From the NCBI GenBank assembly GCA_964016885.1, contig OZ024765.1, forward strand, positions 19,654,001 through 19,718,000: a stretch of 64,000 nucleotides of DNA, read 5' to 3'. A program made the translations under genes and the position numbers. Below the pieces are notes generated by a model. That model had not been told where the DNA came from, did not search any database, and saw only the letters and a list, made by a program, of their open reading frames with translations. The stretch comes from Eledone cirrhosa. Lineage: Eukaryota. Shown here one piece after another: positions 4,062-60,276 of this stretch (the stretch's first letter is position 1; each line of letters opens with the position of its first letter).

Positions 4062-4236
4062 ACGAAGGAGGTGTGGTAAGGAACCAGATGGACCATAACA
4101 CACCAGAGTACTCAATACTTAGGGTAGTAGAGTGGGAAATAGGAAAATGTTTAACCCTGATGGCAGAGCTCAAGCAGAGTGCAGAAATAGCTGTCGAAAC
4201 GGCTTGAGCTCTGCCGTCGGGGTTAAACATTTTCCT
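4062..4236 (-). mobile_element. PLE-type terminus (family C) with a 35 bp inverted arm
   Basis: Arms 4141-4175/4202-4236; homologous to 10232-10436 and 44935-45130; flanked by (TA)n. Confidence 0.75.
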
Positions 4237-4281
4237 ATATATATATATATATATATATATATATATATATATATATATATA

Positions 4282-4395
4282 GCATCATCATCATCATTTT
4301 ACGTCTGCTTTTTCTTGCTTGCAAGGGTGGGACAGATCCTATTCATCACAGCATCTCTCCACTTGTCACAGTCCTTCGTCATCTCCTCTGTTGAC
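4282..4395 (-). mobile_element. Short RTE LINE 3' end
   Basis: Encodes EEMTKDCDKWRDAV...PTLASKKKQT followed by (GAT)n. Confidence 0.8.
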
Positions 4396-4448
4396 TCACC
4401 ATCTCTGGCTTTTGATTGGTCTTCTTTTTCATCCCACCAGGGTCCTCT

Positions 4449-4892
4449 TGCCGTAAGCCCGAAGCTTGTCCCCTTCAACAGCAGTGCAATACACCTGCTG
4501 TAGTTTATGAAGCTGTGGTCACTTCCAACTGACCAAATCAACCACAGGAGGTCAAATCCTATGTGGGTATGGCAGAGGGCCGATTTAAGGAACGCTACCT
4601 GAACCACCAGTTGACCTTTAGGTACCCGGACAGACGTTCATCCACGAAACTCGCGAGCCACGTATGGTCCCTCAAGGACTCAAATATAGACTACTCCATT
4701 CAATGGAAAGCCATCACTAAGTCCAAGCCATACGCAAGGGGCAATCTGTCATGTGGACTATGTATTGATGAAGGAATAAATATTCTAAAGAGATTACGCA
4801 ATAGTGATTGCCTAAACTCAAGAAATGAATTCTTCACATGTTGTCCACACGTCTGGAAACACCTCTTACATAACTACAAAGCTCCGGGTTGA
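4449..4892 (+). pseudogene. Penelope-like element GIY-YIG endonuclease, C-terminal fragment (probably Naiad-type)
   Basis: One frame reads CRKPEACPLQQQCNTPAVVY...SYVGMAEGRFKERYLNH...CGLC..E...LNSRNEFFTCCPH; one in-frame TGA at 4530; followed by a hammerhead and a tail ending at (TA)n. Confidence 0.85.
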
Positions 4893-5058
4893 ATTATAAC
4901 AACATCCTAATTTTCTTATCAACAAGAAAATTTCGGACTTTTACAGTTATCTCCCTTACACCTCTCGCACGTAAATTAGTATTGCCTGTGTGAAGTGATT
5001 GTTTCCGCGCATGCACGTTCGTACGGTTGTCCTTCCTGTTCCATATAACCATATCCAT

Positions 5059-5101
5059 TACGAGCTGAGGATCCACTAAGGTGAAACAATTGTTCTCTGT
5101 A
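5059..5101 (+). ncRNA. Minimal hammerhead ribozyme downstream of the GIY-YIG ORF
   Basis: TACGAG-CTGAGGA-short stem II-GAAAC-AATT-GTT-CTCTGTA. Confidence 0.7.
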
Positions 5102-5779
5102 TGGTGAACTAACTGTTGTGTAACCACTTCTACCTAACTCGTCCCATGGACTGAGTGCTCTACCACTACGGATATTACCTTCCAGTGTTCTACCACTATG
5201 TATATATGTATGTATATATACATATATATATATATATATATAGATGTATATATGTATATATAGATATATATATGTATATATATATATATATGTATATATG
5301 TATATATGTATATATGTATGTATATATACATATATATATATAGATGTATATATGTATATATATATATATATATATATATATATATATATATATATAGATA
5401 CAAATTAAAAGTACTATAAATACCATAAACGAGAGGAAAAGGAGGGGAAGAGCAAGGACTTCTAGACAAGACAAGAGAAGAAAGAAAGGGGGAAGGTGAC
5501 AGACTCTACACCTACTACACCTAGGTCAGAGCAGCGTTTCAGCTACACCTCATGGACAAAATAACAAAGGTATTTCCACGGACAATGGCCAGCGACACCC
5601 ACTGCAAAAACCTCCACCTGGAGGGGGCTCTTTCCTCAGATGGGCCACTATCAATTAAATTTTATGGATGAGGCCAGCTGATCCAGGATCCAAGGATGTC
5701 CGAGGTCCCGACGGCAACCGGTGGAATGAGAAAACAGCTGAACAAGCTACAGTATTTGTGTTCTACCTCTTTATGATAT

Positions 5780-6245
5780 GAGTTCAACTCCTGCCCAGGT
5801 CAGCTTTACCTTTCTCCCTTCCAAGGGTCAATAAAATAATGTACCAGTCTAGAACTGGGGTAGATTCAATCGACTTTACCCTTCTCTTTCTTCAAATCTC
5901 ATGGAGGTTATCGTTGCCTTTCTCCCTTCCAAGGGTTGATAAAATAAAGTACCAGTAATGCACTGGGATAGATTTAATTGACTTTACCCTCCCCCCTAAA
6001 ATTACTGCCCTTGTGCTTTTGTTAGAAAGAATTATTATTATTATTACTGTTGTGGATTGGCAGTATCGGTAGAGAGTCGGATGCCATGCTTTCCAGCATA
6101 GAGTTACGTCCCTTTACGGACTGCGTTCAAATCCCACCGCGGTTAACTTTGCCTTTCATCCTTACGGGGTCGATAAAATAAAGTACCAGTAATGCACTGG
6201 GGGTAATTGCTGGCCTTGTGCCAAAAGTAGAAACAATTATTATTA
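5780..6245 (+). mobile_element. Cluster of SINE family A copies (two diverged partial, one near-complete at ~6050-6245)
   Basis: Repeated GGGTYRATAAAATAAAGTACCAG core, A/B boxes and ATT tails. Confidence 0.8.
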
Positions 6246-6483
6246 CTGTTTTGTTTCTTTCATTCTTCTTCTTCTTCTTCTTTGCCTTCTTCTTCTTCTT
6301 CTTCTTCTTCTTCTCCCTCTCCCCACCCTCTTCCAAACACTGTCTGTAGTAGAGATACCCCCCCACCTCCCCCATCAGTCTCTCACACTATTATACATCT
6401 GATCTGCTTGTTGTTGTTGGTAGCTGGAATACCAGCAGGTATTTGTTGTTTAAAATACCATTGTGATGTAAAATAAGACACAC

Positions 6484-57480: not shown

Positions 57481-58342
57481 TGTGGAGAGGGGAAAACACA
57501 GAAGAGTGTGTTTTTCTTTACAGGAATTTCAAACCACCAGCGTGAAGAGAATATAAGCTAATAGAGGCATAGGAAAAACATTAAAATTAAAAGTATAAAT
57601 TAAAATGAGAAACCAACCTCACCTAAATCACACATGTACAAACTCACCAGGAGAATGGTTCACCATTTAAGTGGGCTCCAATTCGCCCCTGTGGGTCATC
57701 AGCATTTGTCCACACTACTAGAGGGAACTTAAGTAAACTACCCTTCGACGGAGAGATATAAGGGAAATACGTGCACGAGGCAGTAACCGGTGGCATGGAC
57801 AGAACAAGCTGCTAGAGATGGCAGCCTATACTGTTCAATTTAAGGTGCTCAACAGCAGAGAGAGCGCAAGGAGCACATATCAAGTAAAATAACAGAGCAA
57901 AGGACTCGCGTATAATCCTGTAATTAAATGAGCTCAAAGGAAAGAGTTTTCCTGGGCACTTTATATATATATATATATACATTGAGTCTGTATGTATGTA
58001 TGTGTGTGTGTGTGTGCGAGAGAGGAAAAGGGAGAGAGAGAGAGAGAAGTGAGGTATCCATAGAAATAGATAGCCAAATAATCATGAATATGCACAAATG
58101 CCACAAAATCAGACCCCACACTAACCAACACAAATCCAGCAGAATGCACACAACAATGCATACAACTTATTATATATATTCCGTCTAAATGTCAAGTAAG
58201 TTATGCTTTGTGCATACTGCAGAGTCCTTCTGTTTTTTTTATGAAATAAGGTTAAAAGAATGACCTTTTTACGTCTGCAATATCTCAGCATTTTTGGCAA
58301 AATTGCTGCCAAAAGAGTTTATTATTATTATCATTATTATCA

Positions 58343-59150
58343 AGGTGGATTAGCAGTATCGGTAGAGGGTCGGACGCCATGCTTTGACGCACAGAGTTAC
58401 GGCCCTTGCCATTCTGAGTTCAAATCCCGCCGAAGTTAACTTTGCCTTTCATCCTTACGGGGTTGATAAAATAAAGTACCAGTAATACACTGGGTAATTG
58501 CTGGCCTTGTGCCTAACGTAGAAACAATTATTATCGAGGTGGATTGGGGAATTTTTCATTGTTATTTTTTTGTTACATCCTCTGTTTTTGTTTTTTACAC
58601 GCAGAAATGCCCATTTGTACCTGCCTGTATTGTCCTGTACTGTCCTTAATGTCTACTTTATGTAAACCCTTGTGGTTAATAAAGAAAGCATTATTATCGA
58701 GGTGGATTGGCAGTATCGGTAGAGAGTTGGATGCCATGCTTTGCAGCATAGAGTTACGGCCCTTTATGATCTGAGGTCAAATCCCGCCGAGGTTAACCTT
58801 GCCTTTCATCCTCACGGGGTCGATAAAATAAAGTGCCAGTCACGCACTGGGGTAGATTTAATTGACTTTCCCCTCCCCCAAAATTGCTGGCCTTGTGCCT
58901 ATATAAGAAACGGTTATTATTATTATTATTATTAGGGCGGTGGATTGGCAGATTCGGTAGAGGGTCGGACGCCATGCTTTGACGCATTGAGTTACGACCC
59001 TTGCCATTCTGAGTTCAAATCCCGCCAAGGTTAACTTTGCCTTTCATCCTTACGGGGTCGATAAAATAAAGTACCAGTAATACACTGGGTAATTGCTGGC
59101 CTTGTGCCAAAAGTAGAAACAATTATTATTATTATTATTATTATTATAAT
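58343..59150 (+). mobile_element. Tandem cluster of three SINE A copies plus an unidentified 3'-end fragment
   Basis: Copies at ~58343, 58699 and 58934, each starting in an ATT run. Confidence 0.85.
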
Positions 59151-59175
59151 AAAGAAAACATTATTATTATTATTA

Positions 59176-59430
59176 TTGAGAGAGAGACTAAGCACAAGAG
59201 GTATCAAATGTTGTGTTCTGGAGAGGAGATTGCATTGGTATGGACATGTGATGGGTATGAAGGACGACAGCTGTATAAAAAAGTGCAGGGCAATGAAAGT
59301 GCTGGAAGCTACAGAGTGGGTAGACAAAGAAAAACCTGGGACGAGGTGATAAAAACTGACCTTGCTCACTTACACCTCTCTAAGACAATGTCACTGGATA
59401 GAGATCTTTGGCGCCATGCAGTTGTACAGA
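59176..59430 (+). mobile_element. Old RTE LINE 3' fragment
   Basis: ERRLHWYGHVM...RKTWDEVIKTDL...DRDLWR with a frameshift. Confidence 0.8.
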
Positions 59431-59726
59431 AGATCCAACTGCCATTGTATACAAACCTACACTCAGTAGGCACCTCTTAACCCAATGTACACCCTATCCT
59501 GCCACACCCTATCCCATCCTCCCTCTTCCGTTCTGTCCCATTTAAATTCTGCATAGCATCTAAAATAAGGTTTTTTCAGCCCTATACCTCAACCTCATTT
59601 GCATACTCATCTTAATAATTTGAAATATCTGACTTTTCTTCTCTTTTCCCTTCACTATCCAAGAAAAACTTGAACCATTAAGGTATCTTTTCTTGGTTAT
59701 ATCAAAATTTATAAAACAAACTTTGT

Positions 59727-59785
59727 ATTTTATCTGATGAAAGCATACCAAAGTTTTGGTACCGTTGAAATATATATAATATAAT
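59727..59785 (+). ncRNA. Hammerhead, family B, with the complete tail to ~59927
   Basis: TATTTTAT-CTGATGA-...TACCAA AGTT TTGGTA...-GAAA-TATATA-TA-ATATAATA. Confidence 0.7.
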
Positions 59786-60078
59786 AAATATAGATTTATA
59801 AATATAGTTGCCATTTATTTAATATCATTGAATATTATACTCCAGAAAACCTGTCGAGTTCTCTGAATCAGTTATAAACATTTATATTTGTTGAATTACC
59901 AACAAATTGAATATCCCTTTTGCTTTTATATATATATATATATATATATATATATATATATATATATAATTTTTTTTTTTATATATCTCTTGTATTACTT
60001 TTATTTATATATTTTTTACCCGTTAAACTCTTGCCTTTCTTGAGGAGACTTTTCAAATATTTCACTATGTTTTAAATT

Positions 60079-60147
60079 GCCTTTTCCGATGAATGAATGA
60101 GGACGTTTTTCGTATTCGTCTTATTCGGGAAACCTCTGGTAATGAGG
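60079..60147 (+). ncRNA. Hammerhead motif with CCGAUGA core
   Basis: CCTTTT-CCGATGA-..GAATGAGGACG/CGTCTTATTC..-GAAAC-CTCTG-GTA-ATGAGG. Confidence 0.55.
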
Positions 60148-60276
60148 TAATTATATTGTATTGTTTATTATACATTAAATTTTGCTCTGGTACTTACATA
60201 GAGCACTCTTCACTCCTGTGACTTTTTCAATTTTCAACGGAAACTTCAATACTTATATATATATATATATATATAT

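Follow-up and report, generated by a model that had tools for sequence, protein, structure and literature searches.

Twin covarying hairpins, apparently undescribed, in Penelope-like elements of the Hydra clade

A 64,000-nucleotide (nt) stretch of Eledone cirrhosa DNA (NCBI GenBank: GCA_964016885.1; contig OZ024765.1, positions 19,654,001 to 19,718,000 of the forward strand; here called the window) carries several families of Penelope-like elements (PLEs), in whose 3' tails a first-pass annotation had noted a covarying hairpin. Analysis of these copies together with related loci showed that the hairpin is a real, apparently undescribed and clade-wide cis-element of Hydra-type PLEs, akin to the recognition stems of retrotransposons. 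In 28 of the 43 families with a 5' region it was found twice, and many insertions end a few nt upstream of the first or the second copy (hairpin 1 and hairpin 2). From these positions we infer a mechanism in which each hairpin would set a start of copying.

For the comparison across families, 95 Hydra-type loci were collected, the metagenomic part being limited to the 80 best among 521 confirmed stretches. They fell into 75 families at 80% identity, 43 of which have a 5' region, and the first unit of each family was scored. At least one hairpin was present upstream of the open reading frame (ORF) in 38/43 families and two in 28, with a spacing from hairpin 1 to hairpin 2 of 54-83 nt (median 62). 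The twin hairpins sit between the hammerhead motif and the start codon; hairpin 2 starts 34-69 nt upstream of the point where the aligned ORF begins, in the 5' untranslated region (UTR). Controls for the motif rule gave 0/43 for the antisense strand, 1/403 for ORF windows, 5/403 for ORF antisense and 6/860 for shuffled sequences, none with two hairpins; it detracts from these figures that the detection rule, like the windows used below for element ends, was set after viewing the same data. Early rules demanded two to three inner pairs and missed copies with short stems. The consensus reads GCUC-Y-(variable stem-loop)-R-UH-GAGC-R-CU-N-U; the motif, written as DNA, is RCTC-Y..R, a 2-nt bulge and GAGY-RCT.

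Searches with the pattern alone yielded 31 matches in contigs of host G001 versus 1 in the control, and located a further locus (L171) in which the twin hairpin precedes a Hydra ORF. The bare pattern came close to chance in bacterial DNA rich in GC (G006: 7 versus 4 in the control). Among the consensus sequences in the supplement of Craig et al. (2021; PMC8557442), inspection by eye detected the motif in Hydra-2_Amil and Hydra-2_Ajap, in both at the 3' end, twice in the 5' UTR of Hydra-1_Ajap, and as variants in Hydra-1_Crog; Hydra-1_Amil, which is incomplete, showed no sign of it, and Hydra-1_Obim was equivocal. Five diagnostic 9-mers had 4 matches in the six Hydra consensus sequences, at element ends, and 4 in the far larger Naiad and Chlamys files, there by eye inside ORFs and none at element ends; line breaks may conceal matches in this search. 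By eye, the motif was also absent from three fold-back elements of other kinds beside (TA)n. The motif thus looks Hydra-specific, and these comparisons suggest a feature of the clade retained by descent. Because of this, the window families are not "unrelated", as they had been called; the motif tracks a single clade.

All nine hairpins listed by the first-pass annotation were present in the window, which is AT-rich animal DNA dense in (TA)n and further simple repeats. Those on the minus strand have their 5' ends at 4133, 10304 and 50735, where the low coordinates had been given. Most window families have an ACUC/GAGU outer stem. A rule of the same type as that of the annotation matched nine times, against a mean of 0.45 and a maximum of 4 in 100 block shuffles, the nine being copies from about five to six families and not independent. 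A covariance model recovered 8/9 of these hairpins (E<=0.05), including two that had been used for training. The hairpin at 5137, with its 1-nt bulge, escaped it, and it picked up one weak site at 57841-57877 on the minus strand (E 0.9), which lies ~100 nt within a TA run and has no similar copy in the window or the fetched loci. Additional hairpins were found at 41498-41546 and, decayed, at 56716-56749. Among the best 150 of 440 Rfam matches in the window none overlapped a hairpin or reached the gathering score, and these matches were microsatellite and palindrome noise.

Each window hairpin lies 3' of a complete or partial putative minimal hammerhead motif. Both core boxes are found in families E, B, C and H and the GAAA half alone in the truncated copies of family A; in family D the first box is non-canonical. 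A TA run adjoins the tail in 11/11 examined tailed copies of families A-E and H, in keeping with insertion into (TA)n, at 60-96 nt from the hairpin start. The flanks had been described as dissimilar, which needs correction for families B and C, where they are partly alike (78% over 45 nt).

To count inner pairs, hairpins were anchored on the outer stem and the 3' sequence alone; inner pairing was not required. Inner pairs 1-3 were Watson-Crick in 103/109, 67/101 and 54/70 distinct hairpins (shuffled means 57, 29 and 19), counts reached by 0/5000 shuffles. The covariance model was limited to 12 hairpins of equal length because MAFFT misaligned those of unequal length. When the hairpins were aligned by fitting to the model, a procedure biased towards structure, 97.9% of cells were paired, versus 81.2% when shuffled and at most 48% when slid; double changes affected 115 cells, the shuffled figure being 38.8 and slid controls giving no more than 26. 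The outer stem covaries as well (G-C to U-A or A-U, U-A to A-U). On a tree of 28 ORF proteins, the first inner pair of hairpin 1 switched seven times between C:G and U:A, at least four of these switches being forced by well-supported branches; this was a quick tree from which L020 (mis-parsed at a contig start) was dropped, and pairing was already demanded by the detection rule. The shuffle counts and the compensatory switches bear out the claim of a covarying signal. Isolated hairpins are weak (-2.7 to -7.3 kcal/mol). The idea that the 3' CUNU forms a base triple with the stem was abandoned, the tail being constant where the third stem pair changes (L080, L083).

Setting terminal copies against junctions of their own family, either 5' or tandem, gave 28 end rows. 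Ten of these ends lie 2-13 nt before hairpin 1 and nine lie 3-8 nt before hairpin 2. Windows of 1-12 nt, which cover 14% of the positions and contain 28% of the TA sites, took in 18/28 rows (p 7e-5); with the first row of each family the count was 11/18 (p 0.003), and 14/18 families had at least one end in these windows. In host G001, all 24 element ends abutting (TA)n were in range (8 short, 16 long), a figure weakened by the fact that only ends beside a TA run were taken; it derives from 36 rows minus 12 artefacts (10 in which the reference contained host TA repeat, 2 in flanking repeat), and a few rows duplicate the 28-row set. Over both end sets, tailed ends lie 2-9 nt before hairpin 2. 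Families 7, 10 and 20 have both end classes. The near-fixed distance from hairpin to tailless end that had been proposed is thereby supported. The description of one hairpin near the 3' end was right for hairpin 1 and incomplete, since a second copy just past the tail marks the tailed end.

These ends are bimodal, and hairpin 2 is excluded from the terminal insert. Because tailed ends precede hairpin 2 and tailless ends precede hairpin 1, the tail equals one hairpin-to-hairpin unit; it is the beginning of the next unit's 5' UTR.

The window copies agree in part with the earlier statement that tailless copies stop 8-12 nt upstream of the hairpin. Tailless arms reach (TA)n 8 nt before the hairpin in three family A units, 12 nt before it in family C, and 10 nt before it in the family B copies ending at 56553 and 63468; the family B end at 3079 departs from the stated range with just 6 nt. 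TA letters common to arm and target blur all these distances by up to 3-6 nt. The family A units are 4062-4235 on the minus strand (family A2; tailed minus arm with hairpin 4133-4110, tailless plus arm stopping 8 nt before the hairpin position), 10232-10437 on the minus strand (hairpin 10304-10281) and 44935-45128 on the plus strand (short end 45048-45051, hairpin 45057-45080, long end 45128). The family C unit at 45159-45564 on the plus strand has its hammerhead core at 45378-45425 and its hairpin at 45483-45507. The family B copies with tailless ends are 3072-3256 and 63460-63602, both on the minus strand, and a unit at 56545-56811 that joins a tailless minus arm to a plus-strand tail containing the decayed hairpin. 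In one comparison with public reads, the main loose end of family A mapped to 45051, 5 nt before the hairpin and running into (TA)n (2164 reads in run X20), an end also found in 26 and 22 contigs of X1 and X3 (one sample) and 1 of X4. Family C ends scattered over 45465-45483. Many family C reads and contigs had a common fold-back centre at 45311-45321, with the direct arm rejoined at varying points.

Hydra-type fold-back units flanked by TA runs combined a short arm with a long one in 9/9 cases (8 non-Hydra rows of 17 were left out); the composite of two families at 50644-51092, described below, is the exception. The TA peak lies 6 nt before the hairpins (24/54), within a UA patch 5-8 nt upstream. 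This patch offers another account, which we regard as improbable: the hairpins would bind protein for RNA capture, translation control, promoter function or ribozyme folding, and ends would lie nearby only through coincident UA. It draws on the doubled density of TA sites inside the end windows, on the location of the hairpin pair in the 5' UTR and on the influence of the Penelope 34-bp repeat region on tissue-specific expression (PMC2377424). The ends are, however, enriched beyond TA sites both per row and per family, and the TA peak keeps a fixed 5-8 nt from each hairpin; therefore, a positional cause is needed.

We consider it likely that each hairpin is an RNA docking site of the reverse transcriptase (RT)/endonuclease (EN) protein, setting the start of target-primed reverse transcription at the upstream UA. 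This reading is built on sequence comparison and on analogy with a Poseidon element. The protein would dock on the hairpin in the element RNA, the nicked end of the (TA)n target would anneal to the UA ~6 nt 5' of the hairpin, and copying would begin there. A start at hairpin 2 would copy hairpin 1 and give a tailed end, a start at hairpin 1 a tailless end, and tail length would for this reason equal the hairpin spacing. One step further, two subunits of a putative dimer, one per hairpin, may each extend one nicked target strand, leaving a short and a long arm. This fuller version, with a duplicated, clade-wide docking hairpin 3' of the priming site and a protein dimer that uses a single RNA to begin two cDNAs, on opposite strands of the target, is put forward tentatively, as a possibility we do not hold to be probable. 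In the unit 4062-4235 the tailless arm reaches further 5' than the tailed arm, which is easier to reconcile with separate priming than with fold-back of a tailed cDNA; this is one case. Another proposal for PLE inversions is self-priming on an antisense template (PMC3846280), which does not address the two end points.

The analogy is with the Poseidon element PAc of Anolis, for which RT in vitro begins at two internal positions that delimit the tail (Frangieh et al. 2024, PMC11167929). RNA up to +172 was required for a start at +111-118, and a dimer was predicted. PAc thus shares with the scheme proposed here a tail bounded by two internal starts, a requirement for RNA 3' of the start, an AT-rich target and the predicted dimer. 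It has a single AC-rich stem-loop that contains a start and lies inside the ORF, whereas the Hydra hairpins are repeated, conserved, covarying and 3' of each proposed start; in the accessible text of PMC11167929, no element with these properties of repetition, sequence conservation and covariation is reported 3' of the PAc starts.

Several observations weigh against priming at the hairpins. PAc belongs to a different clade from Hydra. Nine of the 28 end rows lie elsewhere, several of them looking like alignment breaks and not ends, and 4/18 families are without any end in the windows. Hairpin 2 was not seen for the window families, of which the window has no full-length copy, and beyond the family C tail there was just (TA)n among the read-end matches listed; a hairpin 2 past the tails of the window's own families is thus a prediction. 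Two tailed arms occur in the head-to-head B/C composite at 50644-51092 (family B on the minus strand with hairpin 50735-50713, family C on the plus strand with hairpin 51008-51032). The folding strand, and with it the nucleic acid, is weakly indicated because the antisense folds about equally stably and G-U exceeds A-C in closed inner stems by just 4 to 1. Two full-length copies, L079 (at 2886) and L010 (near 990), also begin at hairpin 1 beside a TA run, which a start-site model does not predict. A third full-length copy, L007 (2948-5494), likewise abuts a TA run at its 5' start; its length is about that of one unit, and it runs from one hairpin 2 to the next.

These 5' starts are better explained if the hairpins act on DNA. 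The EN would then recognise them in single-stranded cDNA or in an extruded tandem or circular intermediate and cut a few bases upstream, and staggered cuts at hairpin 1 and hairpin 2 would shorten a longer intermediate so that the tail is left; this is the main rival, though we think it rather unlikely. In its favour, pairs in the outer stem and at the first inner position are nearly all Watson-Crick, Craig et al. credit the tail to EN-mediated resolution (PMC8557442), and the EN of Drosophila virilis required the tail for plasmid cleavage (cited in PMC11167929). On the other hand, both PAc ends match RT start sites on RNA in vitro (PMC11167929), loops of 5-24 nt with compensating pairs speak against a site in duplex DNA, and the small excess of G-U over A-C falls on the sense strand. 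Priming is favoured here over cutting as the positioned step.

The common D-stem of tRNA has GCUC paired with GAGC followed by a purine. The likeness of the hairpin stem to it raises a further explanation, in which the hairpin is a relic or mimic of a tRNA D-arm and a host tRNA-handling factor processes the RNA at fixed points. We hold this to be very improbable: the A expected after the D-stem was present in 0/58 hairpins and a B-box-like word downstream in 1/58, and ARAGORN detected no tRNA in 59 junctions or the window. One match of the bare pattern in bacterial DNA looked like a putative tRNA D-arm.

Membership in the Hydra clade could be examined at the protein level in family E, which has the sole coding remnant among the hairpin families of the window. 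This remnant at 4446-4880 on the plus strand is 5'-truncated, has one in-frame stop and encodes part of a GIY-YIG EN with 39% identity to residues 566-706 of a full-length relative (P0231; tblastn, E 4e-26). It ends at a stop codon and is followed by a minimal type I hammerhead motif at 5065-5097 (core boxes 5065 and 5083; stems by eye) and by hairpin 1, the variant with a 1-nt bulge, at 5137-5161, both on the plus strand; the element ends at 5196. The fragment had 3936 relatives at E<=0.001; the window contains no RT region of this family. Its translation shows, by eye, CxxC and CxH around conserved E and N, without an internal CCHH. Of the CxCX5C linker, the window copy has the CX5C part, serine replacing the first cysteine, and the best relative (P0001) has the whole motif.

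The motifs RWK, DKT, CxCX5C, CxxC and CxH, which define the Hydra clade (PMC8557442), are all present in the aligned relatives of ~700 amino acids (aa). Family E is on this evidence a remnant of a Hydra-clade PLE. Naiad and Chlamys PLEs were ruled out for family E; its EN is C-terminal and hammerheads are present, whereas Naiad and Chlamys have an N-terminal EN and no canonical hammerhead. Families A-D and H, which have no coding part in the window, are assigned to the clade by hammerhead, target and motif alone. The search returned no longer relatives of the EN fragment, viral contigs contained no relatives, and Pfam named nothing in 4 proteins. An alignment of the EN alone was too diverse to drive a locus search.

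Much of this setting is already known for PLEs, namely tails, inverted arms, hammerheads and internal initiation. The Hydra-type elements compared here share with the Hydra clade of Craig et al. (2021) the protein motifs, a putative hammerhead, (TA)n targeting and a length below 3 kb. Their tails of about 55-95 nt are bounded by twin hairpins and exceed the 30-40 bp given for PLE tails in PMC8557442, and the earlier impression of long tails was correct. The words "hairpin" and "stem-loop" are absent from the main text of that paper. For the 34-bp repeat of D. virilis Penelope (PMC2377424) and the tails of Adineta PLEs (PMC3846280), the optional extension is likewise the start of the next unit and the inverted pseudo-long terminal repeat is tailless; the extension is discussed there as promoter-like or as a self-priming product, with no structure proposed in the text available. 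The retrozyme preprint (10.64898/2026.07.22.740005) does not mention the hairpin in its accessible part. A conserved or duplicated hairpin in the tail of Hydra or any other PLE was not described in the literature searched (which was without subscription papers, Repbase notes and figures), in agreement with the earlier view that the signal was undescribed.

Small protein-bound stems set the RT start in other systems, such as the 3' stem-loops of long and short interspersed elements (LINEs, SINEs) and R2, and the RNA elements flanking the telomerase template. In LINEs and R2 there is a single stem, located 5' of the start and therefore included in the copy; the Hydra hairpin is duplicated, would lie 3' of the start, and hairpin 2 is never included in the terminal insert.

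Further copies in the window are a tailed family B copy at 59650-59926 (hammerhead core 59734-59771, hairpin 59839-59859), a tailed family D copy at 59990-60253 (non-canonical hammerhead-like core 60086-60133, hairpin 60184-60204) and family H at 41260-41592, all on the plus strand. Family H is new compared with the first-pass annotation and has a hammerhead core at 41300-41329, a 29-nt loop in its hairpin at 41498-41546 and a TA run 95 nt past the hairpin start. The B/C composite, situated between TA runs, possibly reflects the use of two RNAs at a single target, or else nesting of one insertion in another. A tail-only family B copy at 10483-10557 on the minus strand starts at the 3' strand of the hairpin, as does L009 near 630-650, as though copying had halted at the bulge. 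The family C hairpin (45484-45506) is identical in 22/23 nt, loop included, to hairpin 2 of L003 (438-460), the two having otherwise no nucleotide similarity. Family G (41780-42005, plus strand; 56471-56255, minus strand) has a hammerhead core and, ~50 nt further 3', the 3' strand of the motif, a clean 5' partner being absent; its two copies are apparently a single insertion duplicated with its surroundings, because they have common flanks.

Elsewhere in the window, a tandem array with an 82-nt unit extends from 27286 to about 38500 (about 136 copies, mostly 98-100% identical), and two long ORFs on the minus strand, 19466-20977 and 21296-23809, read like remnants of a non-LTR (long terminal repeat) retrotransposon RT and endonuclease. 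Among the loci fetched, L100 (724-1429), L111 (969-1453) and L098 (1699-2530) are fold-back elements that adjoin (TA)n and have extensions of 100-300 nt, without the Hydra motif. A hairpin-bearing end in L175, near 1501, passes into (ATT)n and not (TA)n. Several assemblies filed as bacterial (L079-L095, G001-G006) contain animal-type retroelement contigs, G001 with dozens of Hydra ends.

PLEs are the sister group of telomerase, and the origin of their optional tail and inverted arms has been named an open problem (PMC11167929, PMC8557442). A conserved twin hairpin that keeps a near-fixed distance to both classes of ends makes this problem open to direct experiment. For annotation, it also provides a precise rule for element boundaries and a marker of short Hydra remnants that lack an ORF, and it is a candidate for the minimal cis-signal of a compact retrotransposon protein of about 700 aa. 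If the arrangement of a dimer on two hairpins is true, it would explain why PLE insertions are inverted and have a tail, why the tail has the length it has and why just one arm carries it, and a portable signal of 25 nt could set the start of copying on any RNA.

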